This document shows positions 22,005-60,470 of a stretch of DNA of 64,000 nt, in pieces. Both the position numbers and the translations under genes were made by a program. The stretch is taken from contig JAFZWQ010000042.1 in NCBI GenBank assembly GCA_017617235.1, positions 18,401 to 82,400 on the forward strand, read 5' to 3'. Below the pieces are notes generated by a model. The model worked only from the letters and a program-made list of their open reading frames with translations. It ran no database searches and was not told the origin of the DNA. This stretch comes from Bacteroidaceae bacterium. Its GTDB lineage: Bacteria > Bacteroidota > Bacteroidia > Bacteroidales > Bacteroidaceae. Position 1 is the stretch's first letter. Every line of letters begins with the position of its first letter.

Positions 22005-22796
22005 TTAAAGGTTGTCTTTTTCTATGTCCTTGAAGTACTTGTAGGTTCCGTGCTTCAATTCGTCGGTAGCAGCCTCGTCACATACGATGATGGCGTGGGG
22101 ATGCATCTGCAGGGCGCTGATGGTCCATTCCTGACTTACTGCACATTCAATGGCGTGCTGCAGGGCGCGGGCCTTTCCGTGTCCGTTACATACAATCAAT
22201 ACCTCCTTGGCATCCATCACAGTGCCGACACCTACAGTCAGCGCGGTCTTGGGCACCTTGTTCACGTCGTTGTCGAAGAAGCGGCTGTTGGCAATGATAG
22301 TGTCAGTAGTCAGGCTCTTCACACGGGTGCGGCTTGCCAGAGAACTGAAGGGCTCGTTGAAAGCGATGTGACCATCGGGGCCGATACCACCCATGAACAG
22401 GTCGATGCCGCCTGCATCCTGAATAGCCTTCTCGTATGCTGCGCACTCGGCAGCCAGGTCCTTGGCGTTACCGTTAAGGATGTGTACGTTTTCCTTCTTG
22501 ATATTGATGTGCGAGAAGAAATTGGTCCACATGAAGCTGTGATAGCTTTCGGGATGCTCTTCGGGCAGACCTACATATTCGTCCATATTGAACGTTACGA
22601 CGTTTTCGAAACTTACCTTACCGGCCTTGTACAGTTCGATGAGGTGCTTGTAAAGGCCCAGAGGTGAGGAACCGGTGGGACAACCCAGTTTGAAAGGCTT
22701 TTCAGCCGTGGGCTTGGCTTCGTTAATACGTGCGGCTACGTACTCGGCAGCCCAGCGTGACAACTCTTTGTAGTCGGGTTCAATGATAACTCTCAT
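22005..22796 (-). CDS. nagB: Glucosamine-6-phosphate deaminase
   Basis: 263 aa. N-terminus [17 protein letters not shown] and [21 protein letters not shown] are typical NagB motifs. Confidence 0.95.
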
Positions 22797-22830: not shown

Positions 22831-24378
22831 TTAATGTTTTATGGATTTGTACGTTGCCTGTTTCCCATCCGTTTCGTATATGCATTGGCGAAGCGTCTTT
22901 TCGTCAACCTCCACGGCATCGCGGGTCAGTTCAGGCACGTTGTAACTCTTCAGTAACAGGATATTGTGTTCGGGGTCGCGCTGGGGCATGCAGAATGCCT
23001 TGTGGGCACGTCCCTGTTTGTCGAAGTAAGCAATGAAAGCACGCGAGTAATTGTGGTCCATGCGGCGTGTGACAAATACAATCCATCGTCCGTTGCTGCT
23101 CCATGTGTGATAGGATTCGACGTCTGGACTGTTGGCTTCCGTCAGGGCGTAGATAGAGTCGGTTTGCAGATCCTTGACGAACAGGTCGCTCGACAGGTGC
23201 CAAATGTGGAACTGTCCGTAGTCGCCCTCAGCATAAAGCAGATAGCGTCCGTCGGGACTGATGCGGGGGAACGATGCGCTGCGACTGCGGTTGGCACAAT
23301 CCACCACCAATTCCGAGGGGCCGAAACTACGTGTTTGCTCGTCAAAGGCCATACGGCGAATGTCGTAGTGGAAGTTCTCGTAGCGCGTGATGCGGGTCGT
23401 CTCGGTTAGCGTGTCGGGAACCTCCATACCTGCTATGGCATCGGCGGCTGTGCAATAGTACAGCCATTTGCCGTCGGGTGACCAGCAGGGGAAAGTCTCG
23501 AATTGAACCGAATCGCTGAGGATAAGGCCTACGGTATTGTTCTCCACATCGTAGAGCAGAAGGTCGCTGGCCTGGTCCTGCACTTCTATCTTCTCAGGGT
23601 GATAGATGTGGAATGCTTGTCCTGTCTTGTTGGTACTGAAGGCCACAAGGGGAAGGGTGGGGTGCCACGATGGATAAACCCCGGCAGTAAGAATGCTGTC
23701 GCCCTTAATCTGTATTTTTTCTGCCTTGCCATTACGCACGAAAATGGTGCCGCCATGTTGGGCACGTACGTGGAACAGCATTTGCTTGGCCGAGTAGTTC
23801 TGATAGTTGTGACAGTTGACACAGTGGTTGTCCTCGTCAGAATAAACTCGGTTGTTCTCGTAGATTGGCTTCTCCTCGAAGTTGGTAAGGTTGCGTTGGT
23901 AGAGTCCCAACTGACGATAGAGTTCGTAGCCGGGTTCGATGAGTCGGTAGGATAGATAGGGGTCGATGTCCTCTTCGGCAACGGTAAGCGTGTGCGGCTG
24001 GTACTTCACCCATCCCGATGGGGTCTGGGCATAGACGCTGACGCGTATCTTTGCCCCACGGTTCGCATCGAGCAACGTATGCCATTCCGTGGTGTCCATA
24101 TCTATCTTCAGGTCTTTGCCACCGCCGCATACAAGGGGAGTGCCCTGTTCTCCCTTCATCTCTACAACAATGGCCTTTGCAGTGGATTCGCGCAGGACGA
24201 AGTTAAGTGGGGCAATATTGGCAGGGATAATGATGTCTGTGTAATCGGGATAGATGGGAGCCACGCTGTCTGCCTCCGCATACGTAGCGGGCACGGTATA
24301 CACTTTCTTTCCACATGCGGAAAGAAGTAAAAGGTAAAAAGTAAAAAGTAAGAAGGTGTATCCCTTATGGACTCTCAT
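22831..24378 (-). CDS. Lipoprotein with a single CxxCH motif and a PD40/TolB-like beta-propeller region; function unknown
   Basis: 515 aa. Lipobox LLLSACGKK. HCVNCHNY (CVNCH codons at 23809-23823). Repeated WSPDGKWLYY / ISPDGRYLLY / WSSNGRWIVF blades. Confidence 0.8.
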   Translation of the reverse strand: MRVHKGYTFLLFTFYLLLLSACGKKVYTVPATYAEADSVAPIYPDYTDIIIPANIAPLNFVLRESTAKAIVVEMKGEQGTPLVCGGGKDLKIDMDTTEWHTLLDANRGAKIRVSVYAQTPSGWVKYQPHTLTVAEEDIDPYLSYRLIEPGYELYRQLGLYQRNLTNFEEKPIYENNRVYSDEDNHCVNCHNYQNYSAKQMLFHVRAQHGGTIFVRNGKAEKIQIKGDSILTAGVYPSWHPTLPLVAFSTNKTGQAFHIYHPEKIEVQDQASDLLLYDVENNTVGLILSDSVQFETFPCWSPDGKWLYYCTAADAIAGMEVPDTLTETTRITRYENFHYDIRRMAFDEQTRSFGPSELVVDCANRSRSASFPRISPDGRYLLYAEGDYGQFHIWHLSSDLFVKDLQTDSIYALTEANSPDVESYHTWSSNGRWIVFVTRRMDHNYSRAFIAYFDKQGRAHKAFCMPQRDPEHNILLLKSYNVPELTRDAVEVDEKTLRQCIYETDGKQATYKSIKH

Positions 24379-24403: not shown

Positions 24404-25975
24404 TTAGTTTACGCCCTGTTTGCTCGTGTTCTTGTCTTCCTCCGTATGGCCCCTGGTGGACTTCAGGTTGCCGAAGAAGTAGTAATAGGGATAGTATCCC
24501 TTCCACTTAGGGAACAGTTCAAGGGCGTGCTCTTGACGTGCCTCGAAACTATTTAGGTAGGGCTGTACTTCCTGTAAGAACGTGGTAAGGCGCGGACGGT
24601 TGTATGACAGCGTTGGGAACATGCTGGGTATTTCGGTGTATTTTCCGGACAGCAGGGCCAGCGCCTCGGCGATGCTCTGAGGGGGCGTGGTGCCAACGAG
24701 AGGTTCGCAACGTGCAATGAAGAAAGGCATCGACTTGGTGTAGATGTGTACCACCAGCGAGTTGTATAAGGCATTTATGCTACGCCCTTCGGTCAGCGAA
24801 AGGTTATATCCCAGGAACGTTGGCGGCGTATAGAAGTTCTCGAAGTTGTCGTGTATGGGTTCCGTCAGTCGCACCATACGGAATTCGGGGTCGGCATCCA
24901 CCTTCTCCTGATTGCGTAACATCGTTTGGTACTTCTCCACCCATTTGCCTTCGAAAGGTACATGCTTGAGTACGAACAGGTATTTCTCTGCAACTTCCCA
25001 TTCACCTTTCAGCAGGGCACATTTGGTCAACATCTTCAGGCTGCGCAGTGTGGGACCATTCATGGTTAGGTGCTCCATGGCATGATGGTTGGCTGTCGCT
25101 ATCAACCCTGCGTGGAAATCACAGTCCATCAGGTAGTAATTGACTTGACTGTTGTTCTCTATGTTGAAGTTGTGCATGTAGGGTGTATCGTAATCCAGTC
25201 GGATATCGAATAAATGGTCCCCTTGTTCAACCGTCTGCACAAGGGCAATAGCGTAATATGCTGCAATGGAGCGGTACGAGAGTTCGGAATGAGCACGGGC
25301 CGTTTCGGCCATGCCACGCCAGTCCTGTTCCAACATTTGCCTTTGCATGCGGGTGGTTACTCGTACATCAGGACGTACCCACTGGCTTATACCCATGGCC
25401 ACGACGACACACACCACACAGGCCAGCCACTGAATGTGGTTCTGGCGTGGAGTCTCGTCCTTATACGGCAGAAGAATGGGTGGGAACTTATGGGTGTGAC
25501 TGAACGAACGGATGACCAATGCCAACACGAGCAGTACAGCAAAACATAACAATGGAATACCCATGATGCGTCCTGTCTCCGTCTCGAAGTATAGGTCGAA
25601 ACCAATGTAGGCAATGGTGGAGAGGAAAAGTGCTGCGGGGATGTACTGCAGGAGACGCCACCATCCGCGCAAACGTAGGCAATAACCTATCAGCCACGTC
25701 GAACCGCTTACCAATATGGCTATAATGGCTCCGCCCAATATGGGCCAACGGAACAATTGAAGCAATGCCAGGCCTGCCATCCACAATGCACCCCAGGGAC
25801 GGCCTTCCATATATCGCATCAAGGTTTGGTCGGGAGCCCAGAACGAATATTCGCGGGCGATGCGAAAGACATCACCATACCATAACCACGCCCACAGCCA
25901 TACGGCTATAAACAAAACAAGCGTGGCAGATATCAACAGCGGCTTACGCTGCTTCTTTTGCTGTTGTTTTGCCAT
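24404..25975 (-). CDS. Polytopic membrane protein with a large C-terminal soluble domain (DUF6057-like by recollection); function unknown
   Basis: Start reset to the ATG at 25975 (MAKQQQKKQRK...), because a consensus promoter (25984-26015) and the rubredoxin terminator lie inside the longer ORF. About six hydrophobic helices are followed by about 300 aa of soluble helical sequence. Confidence 0.8.
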   Translation of the reverse strand: MAKQQQKKQRKPLLISATLVLFIAVWLWAWLWYGDVFRIAREYSFWAPDQTLMRYMEGRPWGALWMAGLALLQLFRWPILGGAIIAILVSGSTWLIGYCLRLRGWWRLLQYIPAALFLSTIAYIGFDLYFETETGRIMGIPLLCFAVLLVLALVIRSFSHTHKFPPILLPYKDETPRQNHIQWLACVVCVVVAMGISQWVRPDVRVTTRMQRQMLEQDWRGMAETARAHSELSYRSIAAYYAIALVQTVEQGDHLFDIRLDYDTPYMHNFNIENNSQVNYYLMDCDFHAGLIATANHHAMEHLTMNGPTLRSLKMLTKCALLKGEWEVAEKYLFVLKHVPFEGKWVEKYQTMLRNQEKVDADPEFRMVRLTEPIHDNFENFYTPPTFLGYNLSLTEGRSINALYNSLVVHIYTKSMPFFIARCEPLVGTTPPQSIAEALALLSGKYTEIPSMFPTLSYNRPRLTTFLQEVQPYLNSFEARQEHALELFPKWKGYYPYYYFFGNLKSTRGHTEEDKNTSKQGVN

Positions 25976-26025: not shown

Positions 26026-26055
26026 CAAAAAAGCCCTGACTTTGGGGTCAGGGCT
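26026..26055 (-). terminator. Intrinsic terminator of the rubredoxin gene
   Basis: The minus strand reads AGCCCTGAC-CCCAAA-GTCAGGGCT (26055-26032), followed by TTTTTT (26031-26026). Confidence 0.85.
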
Positions 26056-26069
26056 ATGCTTGGATGGTT

Positions 26070-26228
26070 TTATGCCTCGCTGAATTCATCCTTGCCTACA
26101 CCGCAAAGGGGGCATACCCAATCTTCGGGCAGGTCTTCGAATGCAGTTCCTGCGGCAATGCCGTTATCGGGGTCGCCTACTGCTGGATCATACTCGTAAC
26201 CACATACGTCGCAAACATACTTTTTCAT
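26070..26228 (-). CDS. Rubredoxin (52 aa)
   Basis: Hand translation gives [52 protein letters not shown]. It has two CxxCG knuckles and the conserved aromatic core. It is below the 60-aa cutoff of the ORF track. Confidence 0.9.
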
Positions 26229-26264: not shown

Positions 26265-29200
26265 TTATTTAACTACCTTTTTGCCATTGATGATGTACAG
26301 GCCCTTGACAGCCTTCGCAACACGACGGCCCGTGAGGTCGTAGATTCCGCTGTCCCCGTTGTTGTCGTAAATAGCATTGATGGCATCGGCGGGGTTCTGA
26401 TTGGTGCAGGGTGTGTCGGTCATGTCGTAGTTGGCTGTCACAATTGTTACGTTTTCAATACCCAAGTTGGTAACACTCGCAGGCAGTGTAACGGTTCTGG
26501 CGTTCGTTGCCCATACAAGGTTCCCGTCAGCATCGTAGAACTTGTGTCCAGCATAATTGGTTCCCTGGAAAATCATCGTTTTCTTGTTCCCCGACAACTT
26601 ATACCAGTCATCTGTGGATTTCTCGGCATTGGGGGTATACAGGGTATAGTCGCCACCATAATAAGTGGAATTAGCGTTCTTCATCAGGAATTGGTTCTTG
26701 TCTTCATCGCTCATCGGTACACGATTGCCACTAGCATCGGGAATGGCGTCGAATGGACCGTCGGTGATGGCGGGGTGTGTGATGACGCGGTCGTCAATGA
26801 ACATGATGTTACCCAGTTTCTTTTCGTACTTTTGCATATATTCTTTTGCCGCATCAATATCGGACTGGGTGGTGGTAACGAGATAGTTGGAATAGTCACC
26901 CACATGTACCTTCGAGATGGGAATGAACATACCGTAGGCCTCGAAGAATTCCGACAAGTCGGCTTCGGCTACATCGCAAATCATCTTGGCCAGGTGCAGG
27001 TAATCTTTGGAGCCAGAGGCTACGTTGATAGTACCCGTTACGGTGTTACCCTCGTTGTTTACATAGGTGACGTTAGATGTCGACGTTCCCTTATTGATGG
27101 GGTTCTTACGCATTGTGCGGAACAGATTGGGTAGGAACTGGTCGTCGTGGTGCTGGGCATGGAAGTAGAGATAGAGCTGATAGAACATCGAGGTGGTGAG
27201 CCAGATATCGCGCTTCGACCAAGGCGTTCCCTTGACCATTTGGTTGAAGTTCTCCGTTGGACCATCGCGACGGCTGGCCGTAATGCCCTGTTCGAAGACA
27301 TTGATGTTCGAGAACAAGTTGTTCGAGCTTTCTGTTGCTCCAATGACATTGATACTTGCCTGGTGGTTGTGACCAATCTCGTGGCTCGGTCCCCAGATAT
27401 TGCCACCGCGACGCATCTTGTCGTAGTTCATAACAGTGGGTATAGTGCTTTCGGTGTACCATGTGCCATAATTGGTACTGTGCATGTACGAACTGGCACC
27501 CGAGAATACGTTCCATATGTTGTTATAGATGCCGTCAAAGTCCTCTACGCCCATGTAACGGTCCTCGTTGGCACAAATCTGATTCCAAATATGTGTGAGT
27601 CCTTCTATGTCATTAGGCTCGGCCTCCAGCACGAGCGGGGTGTCCATTTGGAATACGAGGCGTTCGGTTTTCAGGTTCACGAACGGAGCCTTAAGCAACT
27701 CTTGCTGAAGGAGTTTCCAGTCGGCATTGGTCATACCGCGTGTGGCGTCCCAATAACCATTGAGCTGTCCACCTTCGATGTGGATGCAGATGTCGGGGAA
27801 GAGTGACAACTTTCGGGTCACGGTACCTTCTACATGCGACAGTTGGTAGAAGATGTATAGCATTTTCTGCTCGGAGAAACGGAATAGGTTCAAACCAGAC
27901 TTCAATGTCGTCTGCTCTCCCGTGGGGTGATTACCGGATACGCCATCGGTGCTGACTGCTTCAAGCATTAATTCGCTACCCGTCTTCGCATTTGAATCTA
28001 CATATATATATATGATGTCGCCAGGATTGGCTACAATACCTGTGGGGTTGGACAGACGGCCGAAGGGATTTGACATTTGGAAATTCTTGCTCGAAGCCAT
28101 GTCCTGATAGTTGCTGTAGATGTGATAGTCGGTTACACGGAAGAACTTCTCATAATCAGCCGTATAGTCGGATGACTTGCTGGCGAACTGCTTCCACGTA
28201 TTGTTCTTAACTTTCAGCACCATGCTTTGCATGTCAGCATTCAGGGCGGCAAAGTCTTCGTTCGCTGCCAACTGTTCGTCGGTCAGGGCCTGGATCTCGG
28301 CTTTCAGCGTGGTGCAGGCCTTGTTATCGAACAGGTTGTTCAGGTTCTTCTGCAGTTTACTCCTATTGGCTACCAAGTCTTCATAGGCAGTTTGTCCTGC
28401 ACGAGCGGCCTCTATTTCTTCTTCCGTAATTTCGGCCTCCACGAAGTGCCATTCACTGGCAGCTGCAGCGGGATCCCACCAGTAGACAACATTGTGCCCT
28501 TGCGAACTGGAATCGTGCAGACCACCTGAATTGCTTCCAACTTTTATGGTCCAGCGATAGTCCCAACCATCGTTTACGCGGACGATGTTAAATTCGACTG
28601 CCGATGTCACCATATGATAGGGTGTGCTGTTCTGGGTCTGGTTACCGATGTACTTTAGGGTCAGTACACTCTGTATGGTCCATCCTGAGCCACTCTTGTG
28701 CAGTTGCCAGCATTGTGAGAGATTCTCTTTGTCGAGTGTTTTTGTGGTCAGGTCGCTACCTTCGGTAAGATACAGGTCGTAGTAACTTGCAATACGGTAG
28801 TATGCACCGTCCTTTAACTCTCCGGCATATGGACTCATGCCGAGAATACGTTCTTTAATCTCGTCTTCGGTATAGTTCTCCACGGTTTCAAGATACCAAT
28901 CGCAGCCATCGTCAAAACTGTAAGTGAACAGGTTATGGCTGGTGTTCGTATTGAGGAACTTGCCTCCGAAATTCTTGTCGGAAGAGATATTGTAGAATAC
29001 AGCTGTGCCGGTGGCATTGGGACTTTTGCGGATGTAAAGGGTGGTTGCACCCGATGCTGGAACAGCGTAATCGGCTTGCAGATATTCGCCTGTGTTGGCG
29101 CTGCGGAATGTATAGCCGTCTCCAGATGCCTGAAGTATCCATACCTGATTCAGCGTGTTCAGGTTCTTTGCTGTAGTTGTTGCTACACCGCTATTTGCCG

Positions 29201-29327
29201 TAGACAGATAGTACGATGTGCGCTTGCTCTTTACACGTACCAATCCAGTGGTAATGTCCTGGGCATTAACGTAATTGTTACCTATAAAGGATAACAGCAT
29301 TAAAAGAAGAAGGTAGATTCTTTTCAT
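26265..29327 (-). CDS. M60-like (enhancin-like) zinc metallopeptidase with N-terminal lectin-like domains and a T9SS C-terminal sorting domain
   Basis: HEIGHNHQ zinc motif (HEIGH codons at 27370-27384), followed by ...ATESSNN... (downstream Glu). Ricin-B-like N-terminal repeats (QVWILQASGDGYTFRS, QCWQLHKSGSGWTIQS). CTD ...GIYDLTGRRVAKAVKGLYIINGKKVVK. Start reset to MKRIYLLLLML... (29327), because a TATCTTTG box occupies 29361-29368. Confidence 0.85.
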   Translation of the reverse strand: MKRIYLLLLMLLSFIGNNYVNAQDITTGLVRVKSKRTSYYLSTANSGVATTTAKNLNTLNQVWILQASGDGYTFRSANTGEYLQADYAVPASGATTLYIRKSPNATGTAVFYNISSDKNFGGKFLNTNTSHNLFTYSFDDGCDWYLETVENYTEDEIKERILGMSPYAGELKDGAYYRIASYYDLYLTEGSDLTTKTLDKENLSQCWQLHKSGSGWTIQSVLTLKYIGNQTQNSTPYHMVTSAVEFNIVRVNDGWDYRWTIKVGSNSGGLHDSSSQGHNVVYWWDPAAAASEWHFVEAEITEEEIEAARAGQTAYEDLVANRSKLQKNLNNLFDNKACTTLKAEIQALTDEQLAANEDFAALNADMQSMVLKVKNNTWKQFASKSSDYTADYEKFFRVTDYHIYSNYQDMASSKNFQMSNPFGRLSNPTGIVANPGDIIYIYVDSNAKTGSELMLEAVSTDGVSGNHPTGEQTTLKSGLNLFRFSEQKMLYIFYQLSHVEGTVTRKLSLFPDICIHIEGGQLNGYWDATRGMTNADWKLLQQELLKAPFVNLKTERLVFQMDTPLVLEAEPNDIEGLTHIWNQICANEDRYMGVEDFDGIYNNIWNVFSGASSYMHSTNYGTWYTESTIPTVMNYDKMRRGGNIWGPSHEIGHNHQASINVIGATESSNNLFSNINVFEQGITASRRDGPTENFNQMVKGTPWSKRDIWLTTSMFYQLYLYFHAQHHDDQFLPNLFRTMRKNPINKGTSTSNVTYVNNEGNTVTGTINVASGSKDYLHLAKMICDVAEADLSEFFEAYGMFIPISKVHVGDYSNYLVTTTQSDIDAAKEYMQKYEKKLGNIMFIDDRVITHPAITDGPFDAIPDASGNRVPMSDEDKNQFLMKNANSTYYGGDYTLYTPNAEKSTDDWYKLSGNKKTMIFQGTNYAGHKFYDADGNLVWATNARTVTLPASVTNLGIENVTIVTANYDMTDTPCTNQNPADAINAIYDNNGDSGIYDLTGRRVAKAVKGLYIINGKKVVK

Positions 29328-29360
29328 GGTGTTTGTCGGTTTAGTTAGTACTTCATTGGG

Positions 29361-29368
29361 CAAAGATA
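29361..29368 (-). promoter_or_regulatory. -7 box (TATCTTTG) of the M60-like peptidase promoter
   Basis: Exact TAnnTTTG on the minus strand, 33 nt upstream of the ATG at 29327. The -33 region is only T-rich. Confidence 0.5.
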
Positions 29369-29422
29369 CGATAATTAATTAAGAATTAAAAATTATAAAT
29401 TAAAAATGTTATGTCAAGAAGA

Positions 29423-29460
29423 CGAAAAAGCGCCACGATGATAATCGCAGCGCTTTTTTT
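29423..29460 (-). terminator. Intrinsic terminator of discoidin-domain gene A
   Basis: GCGCCACGAT...ATCGCAGCGC is an imperfect stem (29430-29453) flanked by A5 and T7 runs. Confidence 0.7.
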
Positions 29461-29477
29461 AGTGTTTAATGAGCCAT

Positions 29478-29488
29478 ATAGGCCCTAT
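29478..29488 (-). repeat. ATAGGGCCTAT motif, copy 2
   Basis: The minus strand reads ATAGGGCCTAT, 14 nt after the stop of gene A (29503) and upstream of its terminator. Confidence 0.9.
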
Positions 29489-29502
29489 AAGTCCTACAGG
29501 CC

Positions 29503-32500
29503 TTATTTAACAATCACCTTGGTACCATTCAGAATGTAGATACCCTTGCCGAAGTTGGATATTTCGTTGAGGGTTGCATGCTTCGAAACCATGCGGCCAT
29601 CGATGGTGTAAACTGCACCGGCCTTGCTTACGTTTGCCAAAGCGGTTTGGATGCCATCTTCGGCATTCTCGTCCCAAACAACGGTTACGTCTGCCTTCGG
29701 ATCCTGAGGAGTCTCGGTAGAGATGTATGCCTTGTTGGCTTCAATGCGAGTCAACGCAACCATGATGGCATCCTTGTCTGTGGCATTCACAACAAACTTA
29801 TTGCCTTCGAAGTAAATCTCGCCCTTGTCAATAACGATGCTCTCGTAAGTGCCCTTCAACAGGTCCTGATTCTGGGCAGCCTTGGCGAATTCATCGACAA
29901 ACATGGTGAACTTGATGTTCTCAGGCTTTTCCTCTTCATTGTAATCTACTAACTTACCATTGATGAAGATGAAGGGACGGCCTGCATGAATCTCGTTGTT
30001 GCCAACCTTAGCCAGAGATACGTTGTTGTTCTCGACTGCAGTTACTGTCCAAGCCTGGCCTTCGTTTGCCTTCAGCTTAACGGGGAAGCAGAAGTTGTTC
30101 AAACCACCATAGGAGATGGGCAGGTTGATTTCGGCTACGAAGTCGGCTGCATCTCCAACCTCTTCGATGTAGAGAGCACTACGAGAACCCAGAGTAGTGG
30201 CATTCCAAGTTACGAGCATATTGCCGGAAACCTGGGCGTGCAGGTAGTTCTGGCTTGCGCCAGCAGTCAGTGTCTTGGCTGCAATCAGGTTGAATCCATA
30301 ACCCAGAGCACTGGTAGTGAACAGGGTGGGATGTGCGCTCAGCGAAACTGCGCCTGTGCTACCGCCAGCCTTCACGAACAGGCCCGTAGCCTTGTTCTGC
30401 AGGGCATAAGCGCTGTCGCCTACAGCAACGAAGCGGAACAGCATCATATCCTGGTTGGTCAATTCATCCTTGTCGATGAAGTACAGTCTGCTGCCAATGG
30501 TCATATCTTCTGCCTCTGCCTCGATAACAGTATAGATGGCAGACTTGCGGGCGGCAGTGCTGTCTTCCGTTACCTTGATGGTATATTCGGTGGAATCTAC
30601 CTTCAGGTCGGCTGCGGCAATATACTTGCTCCACAGGGCCTGGCTCTGTGTAATGTCGCCTTCAATGGCTTTGATAACATCTGCATTACCTGCCACTTTG
30701 TCCCATTCGTGAGCATCGAAGTCTTCTTCGCTGGCAAAACTAATCTTGTACCACTTGTTGGTTTTCACGCCATTGGCACTCTTCAGGATGTCATCCTTCA
30801 TGGCGTTCAGACGGTTGGCATAGTCATTAATCTTAGCTTCTTCGAATACACCAGCTGCATAGTATGTTTCGGCCTCGTCGTAGAGAGCCTGGAAGGCAGC
30901 TGCCTGTGAGTCGTCGGCCCACTGACCAGGGTTCGTACCCTTGACGATGAGCTGTGCACCGCCCTTCGTGTCAGCCAGAGCCTGACGCAGTGCTTCGGCA
31001 TTGACGAACTTGGCTTTCAGGGCGTCATAGGCAGCCAACAGTGCGTCGAACTCAGCCTGTTGAATGCTGTCGTGTGCCATTAAGCTCTGTTCGCAAATAA
31101 TATTGTTCAGGGCAATGGCCTCTGCCAGATAATTTGCCTCCTTCAGCGATGCAGGATTCAATTGGAACTCGCTCATGTGGCCATAGCCGCGGCCTGTGGT
31201 TGTTCCATCGATGTAGAATCGCAGGTTCTTGTAACCCTTGGTGCCGAAGGGCAGACTGGTTAGGGTTTCCGTGTTGCTGGTATAGGGGGTCATGATGTAA
31301 AGCAGGAATTCCCAATCGCCTTCTTGCTCCTCATCTACATAGTTGTTGCTGCCATATACGCTCCACAGGGTGATGTGGTCGTTAGTAACAGGACGGCGTG
31401 TGAAGGTCATGGAGATGTCTGTGGTAACGACTTCATTCAATGCAACCTGCAGATAATGTGTGTGGTTGGCCTGGTTACCATTGTGCCAGTCGGAATGCCA
31501 ATAGGTAGTGTTCTTTCCGTCGAGAAGTGCACCAAAGTCTGTACCTTCGTCAGCATCGGAGTAAGGACTGCTGAACTGGTCGGCAGAGGTAATCAGGTTC
31601 TGTGAATCATCTACATTGATTTGCTTGAGCACATTACCCAGTTCTCTCTTCGAGGCGGTTACGAGTGTGTCGTAAGCTACCAGCATCAGTTCGTGTGCCT
31701 TGTCTTCGGCATAGGCAGCGATTGCAGCCTGAACGTCTTCGTCACTTACGGGTTCGAATACCCATTCCGATGCGCTGGCGGGGTCGTTGTTGCTCCACAG
31801 GGTGATGCTGTTTGTCTGCGAGTTGCTCCATCCTGCGCAGTGGAAGTAGTTGTAGGCGTTTGCCTTCGTTGCGGCCAGACGAATGTTGACACGTGTAATA
31901 CCATTCTCGGTGTTCACGGGATCCAAGGCAATCAGACTGTCACTTTCTGCACTCAGGGTAACGGGCTTGCCGGCATTGAAGCGTACCTCGTATTCTGCGT
32001 TCATCACATCGTACACGCTGTCCTTGTTCTCCACCTTCCAAATAGCGGGTGCGAAGGTTGCCAGGTCATTGGGCGTGCTGTAGATAGCGCTGATGATAGC
32101 TCCCATCTTGGCACTCAGGTACTTCAGAGGATGAGTAGTCACCTCGGTCTCTGTCTCTTCGTCAATCTCGGTCAGGGTGAATTCGTGTGCACTGCGGATG
32201 CGATAGTATCCACTGACGAGGTCGATGGGAACGCGGGTTGCCAACAAAGCCTCGAAGGCAGCCTTGATGCTTTCGCCTACAGCCTTGATTTCGTCAACCT
32301 CCATACTCATATAGTCTTCCATCAGGTAGGTCTCATCCCAATCGTTCATGATTTCCTTGAATGCATCGTAGGCGTCTGAATCGTATTGACCGGGCAGTGT
32401 TCCCACTGCAATAGCGTCGTCTTCCAGATAAGGCTTGTACTGTTCGTAGATGGCTTCTACCTCGTCTGCGGCACTAACCTTGGGACCCAGGTAACCCACG

Positions 32501-33087
32501 ATAACAATGAAATTGCTGGTGCGGGCGAAGTTGTATGTACCGTCGTTACGTACAACGGTGAATTTGGCGGAGAAAACCGACTCATCATCGTTTTCCCATT
32601 CCACATGCTGGTCGTCGTTGATGTCTTCGCTGGTAGCTTCGTCTGCATCTTCAAGGCGAACCGTTATGCTACCATCCTTTGCGCCCTTGTCGTTCGAGCA
32701 GTTAAAGTCGAACATTACGGCCTTGATGTACCAACCCTTTTCTACCATAACTTCGTAGATGGCATCGGCACTTCCGTAGCGACTGTAGAACATGATATTG
32801 TCCTTGTCGTCGCCCCAGGTAGACATGTTGTTGGCACCATTGAATTTGTTGCCACGAATGTCGACGGTTTCCATTCCTCCATTCTTGGTACAAATAGAAA
32901 TCGCTGGAGTCGTAGTGGAATACCAGGAGCGTGCCCAAGGTGTGGCCTCGTTTCCATTCCATGCTATCCACTTACCATTGCTGAGCAGTACTTCAAGCTC
33001 CACCTCGTCGGGGAAATCCTGTGCCTGCACTTGCGTTACTCCCACCAGGGAGAATAGCAACAATAAGAAAAAGTAAAGCTTCTTCAT
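29503..33087 (-). CDS. 1194-aa secreted protein (paralog A) with one discoidin (F5/8 type C, CBM32-like) domain, ricin-like modules and a T9SS C-terminal sorting domain; function unknown
   Basis: Signal peptide MKKLYFFLLLLFSLVGVTQVQAQ. Discoidin-like segment ...ALLDGKNTTYWHSDWHNGNQANHTHYLQV.... CTD ...GAVYTIDGRMVSKHATLNEISNFGKGIYILNGTKVIVK. Collinear similarity to the neighbouring 1225-aa protein. Confidence 0.85.
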   Translation of the reverse strand: MKKLYFFLLLLFSLVGVTQVQAQDFPDEVELEVLLSNGKWIAWNGNEATPWARSWYSTTTPAISICTKNGGMETVDIRGNKFNGANNMSTWGDDKDNIMFYSRYGSADAIYEVMVEKGWYIKAVMFDFNCSNDKGAKDGSITVRLEDADEATSEDINDDQHVEWENDDESVFSAKFTVVRNDGTYNFARTSNFIVIVGYLGPKVSAADEVEAIYEQYKPYLEDDAIAVGTLPGQYDSDAYDAFKEIMNDWDETYLMEDYMSMEVDEIKAVGESIKAAFEALLATRVPIDLVSGYYRIRSAHEFTLTEIDEETETEVTTHPLKYLSAKMGAIISAIYSTPNDLATFAPAIWKVENKDSVYDVMNAEYEVRFNAGKPVTLSAESDSLIALDPVNTENGITRVNIRLAATKANAYNYFHCAGWSNSQTNSITLWSNNDPASASEWVFEPVSDEDVQAAIAAYAEDKAHELMLVAYDTLVTASKRELGNVLKQINVDDSQNLITSADQFSSPYSDADEGTDFGALLDGKNTTYWHSDWHNGNQANHTHYLQVALNEVVTTDISMTFTRRPVTNDHITLWSVYGSNNYVDEEQEGDWEFLLYIMTPYTSNTETLTSLPFGTKGYKNLRFYIDGTTTGRGYGHMSEFQLNPASLKEANYLAEAIALNNIICEQSLMAHDSIQQAEFDALLAAYDALKAKFVNAEALRQALADTKGGAQLIVKGTNPGQWADDSQAAAFQALYDEAETYYAAGVFEEAKINDYANRLNAMKDDILKSANGVKTNKWYKISFASEEDFDAHEWDKVAGNADVIKAIEGDITQSQALWSKYIAAADLKVDSTEYTIKVTEDSTAARKSAIYTVIEAEAEDMTIGSRLYFIDKDELTNQDMMLFRFVAVGDSAYALQNKATGLFVKAGGSTGAVSLSAHPTLFTTSALGYGFNLIAAKTLTAGASQNYLHAQVSGNMLVTWNATTLGSRSALYIEEVGDAADFVAEINLPISYGGLNNFCFPVKLKANEGQAWTVTAVENNNVSLAKVGNNEIHAGRPFIFINGKLVDYNEEEKPENIKFTMFVDEFAKAAQNQDLLKGTYESIVIDKGEIYFEGNKFVVNATDKDAIMVALTRIEANKAYISTETPQDPKADVTVVWDENAEDGIQTALANVSKAGAVYTIDGRMVSKHATLNEISNFGKGIYILNGTKVIVK

Positions 33088-33144
33088 AAATAATTAGTTA
33101 GTAATTAAAAAGGTTAATAATCGTGTTTCTTATGGGTCTCGCGA

Positions 33145-33175
33145 CAAAGGTAAATATAATTTTTGATATGACAAA
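33145..33175 (-). promoter_or_regulatory. Promoter of discoidin-domain gene A
   Basis: The minus strand reads TTTG (33175-33172), a 19-nt spacer, then TACCTTTG (33152-33145), about 58 nt upstream of the ATG at 33087. Confidence 0.7.
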
Positions 33176-33179
33176 AAAA

Positions 33180-33213
33180 AGAGCCGTGGTTTTTCGCCAC
33201 GACTCTCTTTTTT
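33180..33213 (-). terminator. Intrinsic terminator of discoidin-domain gene B
   Basis: The minus strand reads AGAGTCGTGG-CGAAAAA-CCACGGCTCT (one mismatch), followed by T8. It abuts the promoter of gene A. Confidence 0.8.
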
Positions 33214-33217
33214 AGTG

Positions 33218-33228
33218 ATAGGCCCTAT
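33218..33228 (-). repeat. ATAGGGCCTAT motif, copy 3
   Basis: The minus strand reads ATAGGGCCTAT, 4 nt after the stop of gene B (33233) and upstream of its terminator. Confidence 0.9.
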
Positions 33229-33232
33229 GGGC

Positions 33233-36200
33233 TTACTTAACAGTCACCTTGGTTCCGTTCAGGATGTAGATGCCCTTGCCGAACTTAGACATGTCGTTCA
33301 GCGTAGCCTTCTTCGATACCAGACGACCGTCGAGTGTGTAAACAGCACCAACCTTGCTTACGTTTGCCAAAGCAGTTGCGATACCGTCTTCACCGTCACC
33401 GAAGTCAACTACAACCTCGAGCCTTCTGTCGAAGCCACCATTGTCTTCGCTATCGCCAGTGGTGATGTAAGCACCGTTGATACCAACGTTGTAAGAAGAC
33501 TTAACAACAGAGAACTTGTTGCCGTCGGCAATGATAGAACCAATCTTGATGCTGGTGCCTTCGAAGGTACCCTTCAACAGGTCGGTAGCCTGGGGCTCGA
33601 GTACGAAGTCGTAACCCTTCTTCATCTCAACCATTTCGGGATCTTCGCCTGCAATGTACTGAGCGGTGTCAGCATAAACGGCGATGAAGGGACGGCCGGG
33701 ATATACAGAAGTCTTAATCTCTACCAGAGTCAGCTTGTTCTCTTCGGCCTTAGCTACGCTCCACAGTTTGTATCCCTGACCTTCAACGGGAGTCATTTCA
33801 ACGGGGAAGCAGTAGGTGTTGATAGAACCGTAAGCCATGGGCACGTTAACACTGGTGCCATCGTAGTCGGCTTCAACGGGACCAACCTCCTCGAGATAGA
33901 AGCGGCAACGCTTGTTATCCCAATCAGAGTTGCGGTTGTAGTGTACCAATACGTTCTGCTGTACCTGAGCGTGCAGGAAGTTCTGGTCGTTGTTCTTGAG
34001 GCTGTTGCGAGTGAGGCTGGATGCCTTCAGGTAGTTCATACCATAGCCTGCGGGCTCGGGCTGGAACATACTGGGCTGAGCGCTCAATACAGCAACACGC
34101 TGTGCATTGATGAACATACCCGTAGCCTTGTTCTGCATGATGAATGCGGTGTCGCCCAAAGCGATGAAGCGCCAGTAACTCATATCCTTGTTCTGGAGAT
34201 CTTCGTCGTTGAAGAAATAGATTCTGTCGCCGATACCCAGTTCGCTGTTCTCAGCTTCACGTGAGCTATATACGGCAACCTTGCCTTCTTCACCGTCGGT
34301 TCTTGCAACAGAGTCGATCTGCAATTCACCTGCTGCGGCATACTTGCCCCACAGATAATCACTGGTGCGCTGCTGAATCTGCTCGCTGTATTCGATGGTT
34401 TCGCCACCAGGCAGCTTGTCCCAACCATGATCCTCGTAGAACTCTTCGGTAGCAAAGCGCATGCGATACCACTTACCAGCCTGAACGGGATTAGCAGTCG
34501 AGTTAATCTTTTCTACGAGAGCCTCCAACTGAGTCTTGTAGCCTTCGCTCTCACTTGCGGTATAGTGTCCAGCTTCGTCGTAAGCTACTGCATTGTCGTA
34601 AATCTGCTTGAAGGAAACGGCATCGGCATCGGATGTCCAGAAACCGGGATCGGTACCTACAACAACCTTCTCCTCGAAGCCCTTAACGCTTGCCAGATAG
34701 TCACGCAATACGGTGGGATCTACGAACTTGGCCATGAATGCCTCGTAAGCAGCCTTCAGCTCTTCGTACATCTCAACAGTTACGTTGTCGTGAGAAACAG
34801 TGTCGTACTTCTCAACTACAGCCTGCAGGGCAGGAACTACATCGCCCATAGAGATAGCCTGTGCGTTGGGGTTGGGCTCTTCGTAAGCGAGCTGCAATTC
34901 TGCAGAGTGCCAGAAATAACGGAAGCTTGCACTGGCTCCTTGACAATTGATAGGAGCAAGACGCAGTACGGTAGCATCCTTCGGATCGAAGTAAGCGCTC
35001 TTTGCGGTTGTTTTCTTACCTGCATACGGAGTATCCAGTGTATCAACTACTACCCAATTGTCGTCTTCGAGGTCCTCGGGATCTGTGCCACCGAATACTA
35101 CCCACTGTGTGGGATGGTCGTTGTCGGTGTCACGACGTACAATATTCAGATAAACCTGCTTGCCAATGGGTTGTTCGAACTGTACCTGCAGATAGTGCAG
35201 ACCACCCTGGAACTCGCCGCTGTAATTGCCGTGCCAGTCGGTGTGCCAGAATGTAGTAGCGTCACCGTCAATCAGGTACTCGATGTGCTGACCTTCAGCG
35301 CTGTCAGAGCAGGGGCTGCTGAGCTGGCTGGCATCAGTAATCAGGTCAACGTGAATCGGGTCGATAGCAATGTCCAGATTCGTCTTAGAAGCAGTCATGA
35401 TGGAGTCGAATGCTGCCAACATAACTTCGCGGTTCTTATAGGGCTCGAAGTTCTTGAGGATTTCTTCAGCCTCTTCGGCAGGAACCAGTTCGGGAATCCA
35501 TTCAGATGCACCGGGAGTACGGTTAGGCATGTCGAATGTGCTTACCCAACCTACCATTCGGCTTCCGGTAGCTTCACCTTCACCTGGAGATTCATTCTTT
35601 ATATTATGGTCGCACTGGTGCAGATAGCTGTAATCGTCCTCGTCGTTGTTACGCATATTTACCCACGAGTTGTCCTCGTCGTCGGTGTAAACAGCGCTAA
35701 GGGTAAATGTTGCAGTGGATTCTTTCGACAGGGTTACCGTTGTACTGCGGGCAATGGTGTCGACACGCATATCGTAACCCATGTTCATGATGTCGTAGCG
35801 ACCATCTTCCAGCTTAGTTACCTTCCACAGGGCAGAGGCATCCTGTGTCATGTCGTCGGGAGTGCCCCAGCATCCCTCATAGACACCCTGTTCGCCATTC
35901 AGCTTGGCGCGCATATACTTTGTAGAGTATATCTTTTCGTCTGTCTTGTCGCCAGTTTCCGGGTCAATTTCGTACTGGTAGTAACGTGCCACGGTGCGGA
36001 AACGATAGTAACCATTCTCCAAAGTGATGGGCACACGCGATGTCCAGATGGTGTCGTAGGCAGCGATAAGTTCTGCCTGCAGACGCTTAATCTCGTCAAC
36101 GTCATCGATTTCGTCCCATACGGCTTCGTCTGCTGCATCGTATGCATCCAGGAATGCCATAACCAGCTCTTCGCTGAAGAGACCGGGTTTGTTGCCCTGG

Positions 36201-36910
36201 GGGAAGTAATCCTCGTCGTAGTAATCAGCGTACTTCTCGACGGTGGCTTCCAGTTCCTTCAATGCGGCTTCAGCCTCGCTGTTCTTAACAGCCGGATAGA
36301 GCTGGAAGTCACCTACATGGAAGTAAACACGATAGCCATAGCTTGCACCTGTTGCATCTTCGCAATAGAAACGCAGGTACTTGTAACCCTGAGGATTAAA
36401 GGCGTCGCCGTCGCATGTCTCGTTCTTGGAACCGAACGGGGTCTCGATTTCAGCAAGCGGTTCACCCCATGTTTCCTTCTCAGTGAGAGGGTCTGCGAAG
36501 AGGGCTTTGCGGTACTTCTCATCCGTATAGTCTGGGGTATCGTTTGAGCCGTAAACCGACCATCTGATGGTGTGGTCGTTGTCGGCATTGTTACGACGGA
36601 CATATCTGAAAGCAATCAGCATTTCGTCGTCATCGTAATAGTCGTCGGGCATTTCAACCTGGAAGAAGTGGCTTCCGTTCACGTTGTGAGGGGGATTGTC
36701 GTGCCATGACGAATGCCAGAATGTGTTGGCCTGTCCGTCGAGCATGTTTGCCAAACTACCCTCGTTCGGATCGGTCCAAGGACTGCTCAGCTGAGAATCC
36801 TCTGTGATGAAGGGATAGTCTTCATCCAGAGTGTACTGATACTGTGCATAAGTCGCAGTCCCGCCGAAGAAGCTGACCAGCAAGGCCAGCAAAAAGTAAA
36901 TTTTCTTCAT
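33233..36910 (-). CDS. 1225-aa secreted protein (paralog B) with two discoidin (F5/8 type C, CBM32-like) domains, ricin-like modules and a T9SS C-terminal sorting domain; function unknown
   Basis: Start set to MKKIYFLLALLVSFFGGTATYAQ (36910). Discoidin-like segments ...MLDGQANTFWHSSWHDNPP...HFFQV and ...LIDGDATTFWHTDWHGNYS...HYLQV. CTD ...GAVYTLDGRLVSKKATLNDMSKFGKGIYILNGTKVTVK. Confidence 0.85.
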   Translation of the reverse strand: MKKIYFLLALLVSFFGGTATYAQYQYTLDEDYPFITEDSQLSSPWTDPNEGSLANMLDGQANTFWHSSWHDNPPHNVNGSHFFQVEMPDDYYDDDEMLIAFRYVRRNNADNDHTIRWSVYGSNDTPDYTDEKYRKALFADPLTEKETWGEPLAEIETPFGSKNETCDGDAFNPQGYKYLRFYCEDATGASYGYRVYFHVGDFQLYPAVKNSEAEAALKELEATVEKYADYYDEDYFPQGNKPGLFSEELVMAFLDAYDAADEAVWDEIDDVDEIKRLQAELIAAYDTIWTSRVPITLENGYYRFRTVARYYQYEIDPETGDKTDEKIYSTKYMRAKLNGEQGVYEGCWGTPDDMTQDASALWKVTKLEDGRYDIMNMGYDMRVDTIARSTTVTLSKESTATFTLSAVYTDDEDNSWVNMRNNDEDDYSYLHQCDHNIKNESPGEGEATGSRMVGWVSTFDMPNRTPGASEWIPELVPAEEAEEILKNFEPYKNREVMLAAFDSIMTASKTNLDIAIDPIHVDLITDASQLSSPCSDSAEGQHIEYLIDGDATTFWHTDWHGNYSGEFQGGLHYLQVQFEQPIGKQVYLNIVRRDTDNDHPTQWVVFGGTDPEDLEDDNWVVVDTLDTPYAGKKTTAKSAYFDPKDATVLRLAPINCQGASASFRYFWHSAELQLAYEEPNPNAQAISMGDVVPALQAVVEKYDTVSHDNVTVEMYEELKAAYEAFMAKFVDPTVLRDYLASVKGFEEKVVVGTDPGFWTSDADAVSFKQIYDNAVAYDEAGHYTASESEGYKTQLEALVEKINSTANPVQAGKWYRMRFATEEFYEDHGWDKLPGGETIEYSEQIQQRTSDYLWGKYAAAGELQIDSVARTDGEEGKVAVYSSREAENSELGIGDRIYFFNDEDLQNKDMSYWRFIALGDTAFIMQNKATGMFINAQRVAVLSAQPSMFQPEPAGYGMNYLKASSLTRNSLKNNDQNFLHAQVQQNVLVHYNRNSDWDNKRCRFYLEEVGPVEADYDGTSVNVPMAYGSINTYCFPVEMTPVEGQGYKLWSVAKAEENKLTLVEIKTSVYPGRPFIAVYADTAQYIAGEDPEMVEMKKGYDFVLEPQATDLLKGTFEGTSIKIGSIIADGNKFSVVKSSYNVGINGAYITTGDSEDNGGFDRRLEVVVDFGDGEDGIATALANVSKVGAVYTLDGRLVSKKATLNDMSKFGKGIYILNGTKVTVK

Positions 36911-42354: not shown

Positions 42355-42365
42355 AGGGCGTTTCG

Positions 42366-52286: not shown

Positions 52287-52320
52287 GTTGTTTTTTGTTA
52301 GTTTTGACTCTTTCACGTTA

Positions 52321-52328
52321 CAAAGATA
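52321..52328 (-). promoter_or_regulatory. -7 box (TATCTTTG) of the GH5-GH43/HTCS/GH43/GH27 operon promoter
   Basis: Exact TAnnTTTG on the minus strand, 34 nt upstream of the ATG at 52286. No clean -33 TTTG at the proper spacing. Confidence 0.5.
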
Positions 52329-52402
52329 CGCGTATATATGCAAATAAGTATCATGAGATGTCACTTTTTCTTATAAATTTATCTCATCAAGTGGAAAATG
52401 CA

Positions 52403-56075: not shown

Positions 56076-56082
56076 CGTTTCG

Positions 56083-58674: not shown

Positions 58675-58678
58675 GGGG

Positions 58679-59221: not shown

Positions 59222-59240
59222 TCTTCTTTCTTTTTTGTTA

Positions 59241-59277: not shown

Positions 59278-59289
59278 TGTTATAGGGTA

Positions 59290-60450: not shown

Positions 60451-60470
60451 GATAGAATTCTTGTTTTTTA

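Follow-up and report, generated by a model that had tools for sequence, protein, structure and literature searches.

We analyzed a stretch of 64,000 nucleotides (nt) from the Bacteroidaceae bacterium assembly GCA_017617235.1 (contig JAFZWQ010000042.1, positions 18,401 to 82,400 of the forward strand), hereafter the window, and focused on a locus that encodes an M60-type metallopeptidase and two giant proteins, A and B. The interval 26265-36910 is filled by three long consecutive open reading frames (ORFs) on the minus strand and holds nothing else of substance, in keeping with an initial annotation made from the sequence alone that had described three consecutive genes in about 10.6 kb. Gene A lies at 33233..36910 (-) and encodes 1225 amino acids (aa), counted from the second ATG, which gives a canonical signal peptide. 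It is followed by gene B at 29503..33087 (-), with 1194 aa, and by the M60 gene at 26265..29327 (-), with 1020 aa. The mechanical ORF of the M60 gene opens at a TTG at 29363; the ATG model was used instead, again chosen for its canonical signal peptide. All three N-termini consist of MK(K/R), a hydrophobic core, an A-x-A-like site, and then a glutamine. Read directly from the sequence, the signal peptides are MKRIYLLLLMLLSFIGNNYVNA, MKKLYFFLLLLFSLVGVTQVQA, and MKKIYFLLALLVSFFGGTATYA, cleaved ahead of QD, QD, and QY, respectively, so that the signal peptide first noted on each protein, of the Sec type, was found on all of them. Since no cysteine stands at the cleavage site of A, B, or the M60 protein, they are predicted to be substrates of signal peptidase I and not lipoproteins. 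Glutamine right after the presumed cleavage site fits the Q-rule of Bacteroidetes.

The terminators first noted for genes A and B were recovered. Gene A is followed by a terminator-like hairpin with a T8 run (33173..33213 (-), AAAAAAGAGAGTCGTGGCGAAAAACCACGGCTCTTTTTTTT), and gene B by one of 15 pairs and then a T-run (29425..29458 (-)). The Bacteroidetes promoter -7 consensus is TAnnTTTG. A box of this type had been reported ahead of the M60 gene and is present as TATCTTTG at 29361..29368 (-), 33 nt before the ATG. The statement that gene B has no convincing promoter had to be corrected, for a Bacteroidetes-type -7 box, TACCTTTG, lies at 33145..33152 (-), 57 nt before its ATG. Since no terminator or -7 box is shared among A, B, and the M60 gene, the three look like separate transcription units rather than one operon, as judged from these sequence signals. 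A sigma-70 promoter scan returned fewer sites than shuffled sequences did and was set aside, the sigma-70 model not being informative for Bacteroidetes.

The M60 protein matches Pfam Peptidase_M60 (PF13402) over aa 533-799 with 101.9 bits (cut-off 25.8, E 6e-29). Its gluzincin motif, HEIGHNHQASINVIGATE (aa 649-666, 27330..27383 (-)), is an intact HEXXHX12E, with HEIGH at aa 649 and 12 residues separating the second His from the Glu; the motif of the M60-like family has been defined as HEXXHX(8,28)E (PMC3267712). The best solved relative is BT4244 (5kd5), with E 2.7e-40 over aa 391-865, and the active-site block is near-identical to that of BT4244 (WGPxHEIGHxHQ...TESSNNLFSN). The next solved matches are the Bacteroides caccae BcM60 O-glycopeptidases and then the Akkermansia M60 entry 7sci, which we take to be AM0627. 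An identical protein carries the NCBI name 'M60 family metallopeptidase [Bacteroidaceae bacterium]'. Both the call of an M60-like HExxH metallopeptidase and its claimed kinship with characterised O-glycopeptidases were thus upheld, and membership in the M60-like family appears solid at the level of sequence. The protein would be expected to act as a peptidase, on a substrate that we discuss below. Literature searches on a rumen M60 enzyme returned nothing relevant.

In order, the M60 protein (26265..29327 (-)) comprises the signal peptide, two beta-trefoil-like lectin domains, a helical linker, an immunoglobulin-like (Ig-like) N-domain with the M60 catalytic domain, M60_C, and a short tail. 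The alignment to 5kd5 opens at aa 391, about 140 residues ahead of the Pfam catalytic stretch, so the homology reaches upstream of the catalytic domain. BT4244 has an Ig-like N-domain ahead of its catalytic domain (PMC9325726), and from the alignment we take the span aa 391-865 (26733..28157 (-)) to include such a domain as well. The M60_C match is sub-threshold in Pfam. The N-terminus holds two ricin-type beta-trefoil-like domains (aa 26-160 and 172-305, 28413..29252 (-)). They are mutually related (hhalign probability 95%), and lectin domain 2 is homologous to beta-trefoil-like domain 1 of the giants (hhalign probability 97%, E 1e-10). The peptidase and its large neighbors therefore share a module.

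Giants A and B are paralogs with 36% identity across about 1050 aa. Protein A (33233..36910 (-)) is built of a signal peptide, an N-terminal discoidin domain, a helical spacer, a beta-trefoil-like domain, a second discoidin domain, a further helical spacer, a second beta-trefoil-like domain, a beta-sandwich, and a short tail. Its N-terminal discoidin (F5/8 type C, aa 28-207, 36290..36829 (-)) was delimited by BLASTP to the discoidin of B and by the second of two Pfam stretches; its identity to that discoidin, the central one in B, is 37% (E 8e-26). The other Pfam stretch marks the central discoidin of A (aa 535-655, 34946..35308 (-)), and the F5_F8_type_C match over both stretches, 38.6 bits, exceeds the cut-off of 28.2. 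The match on B, at 26.8 bits, lies just under this cut-off. The N-termini of the two paralogs differ, with the extra discoidin in A and a different beta-sandwich in B.

B was modelled with AlphaFold2 from 29 homologs; the model reached a mean predicted local distance difference test (pLDDT) score of 86 and showed beta domains alternating with helical spacers or bundles. An N-terminal beta-sandwich (aa 28-199, 32491..33006 (-)), which has no Pfam match and resembles discoidin weakly (hhalign probability 32%), is followed by a three-helix spacer (aa 202-282) and by beta-trefoil-like domain 1 (aa 293-447, 31747..32211 (-)), all-beta in the model and the one homologous to M60 lectin domain 2. A long helix (aa 449-487) leads to the discoidin/CBM32-like domain (aa 490-648, 31144..31620 (-)). 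Beyond another helical spacer (aa 654-769) come beta-trefoil-like domain 2 with a long hairpin insertion (aa 778-979, 30151..30756 (-)) and a C-terminal beta-sandwich (aa 985-1139, 29671..30135 (-)) that was also modelled separately as a fragment. By Foldseek, the discoidin domain of B matches CBM32-5 of CpGH89 (4a44, template modelling (TM) score 0.73), the NanJ CBM32 (2v72, 0.67), and 4a41, with TM scores of 0.67-0.74 on the target; the ZmpB CBM32 pair (7jnd/7jnb) is also among the best matches of B. By phmmer, the same domain matches the galactose-binding domain of a Micromonospora sialidase, and trefoil 2 matches the PDB entry MITSUBA-1 (E 6.5e-6), a designed beta-trefoil lectin. Trefoil 2 is sub-threshold for RicinB_lectin_2 in Pfam (14 bits), as is the M60 N-terminus (21.1 bits, cut-off 25.6), and the two trefoils of the giants are related with an hhalign probability of only 38%. 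Of the carbohydrate-binding modules initially proposed, the discoidin/CBM32-like ones accordingly stood, in A above the Pfam threshold and in B by modelled fold; the ricin-like ones failed in Pfam and have remote evidence in their favor. Cry1 protoxins retrieved by Foldseek with the whole chain of B had TM scores of 0.08-0.09, too low for homology, and were rejected.

No catalytic family was found on A or B: the full proteins have no Pfam match beyond the discoidin and sub-threshold ones, no NCBIfam match, and no HExxH motif. This agrees with the earlier remark that the giants have no visible catalytic motif, and it is equally the case that no member of their family has been characterised or solved. 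Two of their domains, the beta-sandwiches to which no fold is assigned, could nonetheless hide a function, which would count against a role in binding alone. The giants would then be enzymes with an unrecognised catalytic domain, the N- or C-terminal beta-sandwich being the candidates. The C-terminal sandwich of B is modelled confidently (pLDDT 89.6 in the fragment model) and yet has no PDB relative in Foldseek (best E 0.11) and no Pfam match, and it keeps invariant Cys, Pro, and Gly positions across the 29 homologs. Nevertheless, the invariant residues are mostly structural (Gly, Pro, Trp, Tyr, and Phe), the search for a catalytic family, motif, or metal site in A and B was negative, the N-terminal domain is unlike between the paralogs, and the proteins as a whole diverge very fast. 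We therefore regard a hidden catalytic domain as very improbable.

Two further observations concern the giants. The plus strand opposite A and B contains unusually long antisense ORFs (34427..36547, 706 aa; 33215..34264, 349 aa; 29986..30909, 307 aa); they gave no family or Pfam matches and were taken as shadow ORFs, not as genes. In addition, the N-terminal modules of B (beta-sandwich, helical bundle, and trefoil 1) and its discoidin recur in two BspA/leucine-rich repeat (LRR)-type proteins of 1700-2000 aa, P0029 and P0031 (L084, 519..6644), P0029 being 49% identical to B over aa 3-452. One of these two proteins has both a dockerin match and the short tail described below. Modules of the giants have evidently been shuffled among rumen surface proteins, to judge by these shared domains.

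Relatives of the giants were sought by running a profile exhaustively against 1.84 billion cluster representatives (50% identity). A total of 687 clusters matched the giant profile at E<=1e-30, most of them about 1150-1260 aa long and matched end to end. A word-indexed search that returned only 31 relatives of B was discarded as an artefact of its word prefilter. Genomes were then represented by one per species (GTDB); the scan gave 183 stretches, from which 72 loci in 63 genomes were kept. All 72 come from metagenome-assembled genomes (MAGs) titled Prevotellaceae, Bacteroidaceae, Bacteroidales, or Prevotella, plus one 'Candidatus Physcousia equi', and the titles that name a source point mostly to ruminants (cattle, sheep, goat, yak, buffalo, and deer). 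Proteins of the window itself have identical counterparts among those of MAGs. Linkage was counted by tblastn of the window proteins against these loci, and an M60 gene was scored as missing only where at least 5 kb of downstream sequence was available. An M60 ortholog, 54-88% identical in its catalytic part, lies directly downstream of one to four tandem giants in 36 of the 72 loci, and a divergent M60 protein of about 1370 aa takes the same position in seven more (verified with Pfam in L062). Eighteen informative loci have no M60 gene and the remaining 11 are truncated. Altogether, a giant stands directly upstream of the M60 gene in 43 of the 63 species-level genomes. Co-occurrence of the three genes in other genomes was the test that the initial annotation had set for itself, and the locus passed it.

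The surroundings of the giant-M60 pair are constant on one side and variable on the other. On the downstream side, the M60 gene is followed almost invariably by DUF6057, the PD40 lipoprotein, and nagB, in that order, whereas the upstream neighbor may be DUF4954, a semialdehyde dehydrogenase gene, or a gldK/L/M/N-porP operon. Loci without an M60 gene often have another large tail-bearing glycoprotein or glycan enzyme after the giant: a ricin-GH20 protein followed by GH125, GH76, and GH2 (GH, glycoside hydrolase family), a ricin-GH76 protein, or a C10 peptidase with LRRs, as in the large tail-bearing C10-LRR protein of L029. The partner enzymes in L054 (ricin-GH20) and L056 match RicinB_lectin_2 above threshold. 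Compared with the window proteins, those of the 36 orthologous loci have a median identity of only 37% in the giants and 45% in the M60 lectin domains; DUF6057 stands at 47%, the M60 catalytic part at 66%, DUF4954 at 71%, and nagB at 94%. The predicted glycan-binding parts are the fastest-diverging.

Taken together, these results lead us to lean, with some reservation, toward the interpretation that the locus serves uncultured rumen Prevotellaceae as a conserved module for attacking glycoproteins outside the cell. Several observations weigh against this interpretation. Linkage is not universal: some giants have no M60 gene beside them (L004, L005, and the 18 genome loci), and some M60 genes have no giant (L006, L010, and L083). 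With a terminator and -7 box for each gene, co-regulation is not implied. All loci belong to one lineage with conserved synteny, in which nagB is 89-99% identical, and co-occurrence is therefore partly inherited rather than independently selected. Moreover, the B discoidin is only 14-17% identical to characterised CBM32 modules, which bears on its predicted ligand.

Some of these observations would be expected if the giants were general adhesins or surface-coat proteins, functionally unconnected to the M60 peptidase and adjacent to it by inherited synteny at a hotspot of secreted-protein genes. Such proteins might bind feed particles, other microbes, protozoa, or the epithelium, or form an antigenically variable surface layer. 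Separate terminators and promoters, lone giants after DUF4954 in L004 and L005, the 18 informative loci without M60, tandem copy numbers that vary from one to four, a divergence very fast in comparison with nagB, and N-terminal modules held in common with the BspA/LRR-type proteins P0029 and P0031 are all compatible with this alternative. It accords less well with the retention of the giant-M60 pair across at least three different upstream contexts, with the homology between a lectin domain of the peptidase and trefoil 1 of the giants, and with the large tail-bearing enzyme that usually comes next in loci without M60 (ricin-GH20 in L054, C10-LRR in L029), which is unexpected of a random neighbor. 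For these reasons we doubt that the giants are adhesins unrelated to the peptidase.

The route by which the proteins of the proposed attack module reach the cell surface was approached through their C-termini. A, B, and the M60 protein have in common a C-terminal tail of about 45-50 residues, which shows the core YDLxGRRV..KGIYIxNGKKVxVK and the fuller consensus (D/T)GI...x(10-15)...YDLxGRRV...KGIYIxNGKKVxVK, and the giants have an extra helix, 'ATLNxxSxF', inserted in it. The tail occupies 33236..33388 (-) in A, 29506..29658 (-) in B (aa 1144-1194), and 26268..26402 (-) in the M60 protein, where it ends in IYDLTGRRVAKAVKGLYIINGKKVVK. It is also present on the GH33 sialidase and the GH27 protein of the window, in degenerate form on a GH5-GH43 protein, and on 24 further ORFs of related loci that are neither giants nor M60 proteins. 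A profile homolog search with the tail gave 1768 matches at E<=10, mainly short contig-end fragments named 'hypothetical protein', and shows only that it occurs widely. The tail was seen only at the extreme C-terminus, and in proteins with a signal peptide.

The initial annotation had called this tail a Por/type IX secretion system (T9SS) C-terminal sorting domain and the three proteins T9SS cargo. Neither label held in that form, and the evidence against them extends the case against the favored reading. With the two curated models of the C-terminal domain (CTD), PF18962 and TIGR04183, the tails of A and B scored 12.8-14.5 bits (A, 12.8 with TIGR04183; B, 13.5 with PF18962 and 13.7 with TIGR04183; E 0.05-0.09), far below the cut-offs of 27 and 23, and those of the M60 protein, the sialidase, and the GH27 protein matched neither. 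Among 25 diverse tails, three matched PF18962 faintly (best E 0.0012), which made it the sole Pfam family matched more than once, and one of 20 tails from other enzyme types matched TIGR04183 (E 0.012); none of these four faint matches among 45 tails passed a cut-off. The curated models are 72-75 positions long. In the model of B, the tail of about 50 residues forms one helix, four strands, and one inserted helix (pLDDT 70-87), instead of a beta-sandwich CTD of about 70-90 residues. Searched against the PDB with Foldseek, this fold, which is not the seven-stranded CTD sandwich, retrieved no CTD (best E 0.11).

These negative results admit a different view of the tail, namely as a non-T9SS module for surface or vesicle attachment, or as a partner in a cohesin-like interaction, on proteins that are not T9SS cargo at all. 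The NCBI names of the tail-bearing proteins contain no T9SS label, which agrees with that view, and in one M60 ortholog the tail is interchangeable with a dockerin: P0056 (L083, 3624..6737), 65% identical over its full length, has a type I dockerin exactly in the place of the tail. There are, on the other hand, four lines of evidence that connect the tail to T9SS. When its profile was run against PDB sequences, the first matches were 4kca (a GH43 arabinanase from a rumen metagenome, E 3e-11) and 7jvi (E 5e-4), both of which bear the same tail; the next four, the best unrelated ones, were all gingipain CTDs (7pq4, 5hfs, 5ag9, and 5ag8), weak (E 0.02-0.15) and aligned around the D-x-x-G-R-R-V ... 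G-x-Y block. The two T9SS families are the only ones that tails match recurrently, the tail is confined to the extreme C-terminus of signal-peptide proteins, and the lineage has T9SS core genes. No T9SS machinery is encoded in the 64-kb window, but related genomes encode core components, and in L062 (1281..7373 (-)) these stand directly upstream of, and divergent from, the giant-M60 block. By Pfam their products belong to the GldN, GldM, and GldL families and to PorP/SprF, with a GldK/PorK-like FGE-sulfatase-domain protein. In L068, L077, and L079, which like L062 come from more distant genomes, T9SS genes apparently also adjoin giants, as read from N-terminal sequence only. In our reading the tail serves for sorting or anchoring and is probably akin to the type A CTD in shortened form, and the proteins would be displayed on the surface through T9SS; a tail unconnected to T9SS we hold to be a real possibility, if a rather unlikely one. 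Literature searches on the tail in the context of 4kca found nothing relevant.

The contig of P0056 carries gyrB and S20 genes and no giant. The dockerin of this ortholog suggests module swapping or transfer between rumen lineages, as far as its domain architecture can indicate. An assignment of the dockerin-bearing relatives P0056 and P0031 to Firmicutes was considered and rejected, because a Dockerin_1 match also occurs on a contig with the lineage-typical M60-DUF6057-PD40 block. For these same two proteins, no conserved giant-M60 pairing outside the lineage was found.

The genes around the locus bear on what the predicted attack module might act upon. Within 17 kb of the M60 gene lie a tail-bearing GH33 sialidase (9948..12725 (-)), a NagA-type amidohydrolase (20746..21909), and the glucosamine-6-phosphate deaminase nagB (22005..22796 (-)), the conserved downstream end of the block, and a GH2 gene is found at 7500..9941. 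All four genes were thus present as first listed, except that the sialidase cannot keep its T9SS label, its tail matching no curated CTD model. No TonB-dependent receptor or SusD family was detected among the 33 ORFs of at least 150 aa scanned in the 64 kb, so the description of the locus as SusC/D-independent holds for this extent of sequence. The flanking genes are mainly plant-glycan enzymes (GH51, two GH43, GH27, and GH5-GH43, with a hybrid two-component regulator), which adds to the points against the favored interpretation. Specifically, the segment 40597..52364 (-) encodes a tail-bearing GH27 alpha-galactosidase (GH27-CBM35, 40597..42384 (-)), a double GH43-CBM6 protein, the hybrid two-component (AraC-type) regulator, and the GH5-GH43 protein with the degenerate tail (48948..52364 (-)), followed by a major facilitator superfamily sugar transporter and not by SusC/D. 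It looks like a plant hemicellulose or arabinogalactan locus without the classical core of a polysaccharide utilization locus (PUL).

Host mucin, the target named in the initial annotation, accordingly became one option among several, given a rumen MAG, flanking genes for plant glycans, and giants with other partners (GH20, GH76/GH125, GH2, and C10). The module could be real and its substrate another one: plant hydroxyproline-rich glycoproteins or arabinogalactan proteins, or the mannoproteins and N-glycoproteins of fungi, yeasts, and protozoa. Besides the plant-glycan genes, the alternative partners of the giants fit such substrates, since a set of GH76, GH125, GH20, and GH2 is typical of alpha-mannan and N-glycan breakdown. 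Peptidase_M60 has also been reported from environmental niches in addition to host-associated ones (PMC13580078). Among characterised enzymes, however, those closest to the peptidase are mucin-type O-glycopeptidases; a GH84-type NAGidase is inserted beside the M60 gene in one close relative; and the sialidase, nagA, and nagB lie close by. We know of no sialic acid on plant or fungal glycoproteins. A substrate other than host mucin is consequently a tenable option, to which we would give distinctly less than even weight.

Immediately downstream of the M60 gene, 37 nt past its stop, lies a gene for a rubredoxin of 52 aa (26070..26228 (-), Pfam Rubredoxin E 4e-26). Because it follows so closely and precedes a strong terminator-like hairpin (26032..26055 (-)), it is probably co-transcribed with the M60 gene. 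The M60-rubredoxin order is repeated in L001 and L002, an odd pairing with no obvious rationale. Next come a DUF6057 multi-pass membrane protein (24404..25975 (-), Pfam E 4.5e-39) and a PD40/TolB-like beta-propeller lipoprotein with the lipobox LLSAC (22831..24378 (-)). This DUF6057-PD40 pair follows the M60 gene in nearly all related loci, with or without giants, and is duplicated in L036, L040, and L071. In L006 (13018..16181), which has no giants, the stop of the M60 gene overlaps the start of DUF6057. The most constant partner of the peptidase may be this pair rather than the giants. Searches for DUF6057 found no PDB relative and no literature. Elsewhere in the window we observed a C10 (streptopain-family) cysteine peptidase with a Spi inhibitor-like prodomain (15691..16944 (-)) and, at 54117..63996 (-), Mfa-like fimbrillin genes, a DUF3575 protein, a weak OmpA match (21.6 bits, cut-off 27.2), and several proteins without a family, which probably form a minor-fimbria locus.

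How a glycoprotein-attack module of this composition might work can be outlined as follows. The M60 gene would encode a Sec-exported zinc O-glycopeptidase of the BT4244/AM0627 type that carries two N-terminal beta-trefoil lectin domains. The giants would be fast-evolving, non-catalytic proteins of about 1200 aa whose glycan-binding domains are kept apart by helical spacers. On the cell surface, or released from it, they may capture and hold glycosylated protein substrates, acting in trans as CBM32 modules act in cis in BT4244 or ZmpB, and they may serve the M60 peptidase as well as other tail-bearing enzymes such as the sialidase of the window. The tail would most likely be a compact signal for sorting or anchoring, akin to the C-terminal half of a type A CTD of T9SS. 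Mucin of saliva or epithelium, trimmed by the sialidase, is a candidate substrate, as are other O- or N-glycoproteins. Cleavage by BT4244 and AM0627 is restricted to Tn/T glycoforms and depends on desialylation beforehand (PMC9325726), which would give the tail-bearing GH33 sialidase and nagA/nagB a logical place in the scheme. Likewise, targeting that depends on carbohydrate-binding modules has been reported for a Bacteroides fragilis mucinase (PMC13003899), and the rumen offers both salivary and epithelial mucins, with a mucin-degrading member of the Prevotellaceae already isolated (PMC8136628).

If the module works as proposed, abundant rumen Prevotellaceae would possess a dedicated SusC/D-independent means of attacking glycoproteins, for example salivary or epithelial mucins, with a bearing on nitrogen and amino-sugar turnover in the rumen. 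Mucin loss has been linked to bloat in old reports, and the module may bear on such loss. The discoidin and trefoil modules of the giants are a possible source of new glycan-binding specificities, and a new M60 clade with trefoil lectins could extend the set of mucinases used in glycoproteomics. The tail itself occurs on many secreted enzymes, at least two of them crystallised (4kca and 7jvi), and is not flagged by standard T9SS models; secretome predictions from rumen MAGs may for that reason be systematically incomplete. A bolder proposal would be that lectin function was split off the O-glycopeptidase into rapidly diversifying, trans-acting giant scaffold-lectins that assemble with M60, sialidase, and other enzymes on the surface, all of them exported and anchored by a mini-CTD of about 45 residues that T9SS models miss, which would leave much of the secretome of the lineage unannotated. 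We offer it as speculation that is quite unlikely to hold in full.

Among known systems, BT4244 of Bacteroides thetaiotaomicron (5kd2/5kd5/5kd8) is the nearest to the peptidase: both have the M60 HEXXH...E site, and both are extracellular Bacteroidales enzymes fused to glycan-binding modules, that of the window by prediction. BT4244 is a surface lipoprotein of a bacterium not known to have T9SS. It carries BACON and CBM32 modules in cis (PMC3267712), whereas the peptidase of the window, whose activity is predicted, combines two beta-trefoil-like modules with a type I signal peptide and the short tail, the discoidin/CBM32-like modules being placed on separate upstream genes. The clostridial and streptococcal M60 O-glycopeptidases of the ZmpB/ZmpC type (7jfs, 7jnd) similarly combine M60 with several CBM32 modules, and the CBM32 pair of ZmpB matches B; there, however, everything is on one polypeptide of a Gram-positive pathogen, and here a peptidase is accompanied by one to four tandem non-catalytic proteins. 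PUL surface glycan-binding proteins and cellulosomal scaffoldins offer a functional analogy only, as non-catalytic multi-domain glycan binders encoded beside the enzymes that they would serve, to which the M60 ortholog with a dockerin may be added; the giants have no sequence relationship to them, no SusC/D partner, and no detected cohesin.

With respect to export, T9SS-secreted, PUL-independent multimodular enzymes of rumen Bacteroidetes are an established concept (PMC5831590). The T9SS carbohydrate-active enzymes of 'Ca. Paraporphyromonas polyenzymogenes' described in that study resemble the present proteins as large multimodular secreted proteins of a rumen Bacteroidales member, with a C-terminal signal, operon-like cargo clusters, and no SusC/D nearby. 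They differ in being cellulases and hemicellulases called by the TIGR04183 gathering threshold, whereas the proteins of our locus fail TIGR04183 and comprise one peptidase and two non-catalytic proteins. The type A CTD of T9SS (gingipain RgpB; 5hfs, 5ag8, and 7pq4) likewise stands at the extreme C-terminus of Sec-exported proteins and shows faint similarity to the tail over D-x-x-G-R-R-V ... G-x-Y-x-V, but the tail is about half as long, falls below both cut-offs, and has an unlike predicted fold. On the one hand, the peptidase is a new member of the known M60 family. On the other hand, three features are new with respect to the systems described: the placement of CBM32-like function on separate, tandemly amplified giants and not on the peptidase, a giant family without any characterised or solved member, and a short tail that curated CTD models miss and that nevertheless terminates many secreted enzymes of the lineage.

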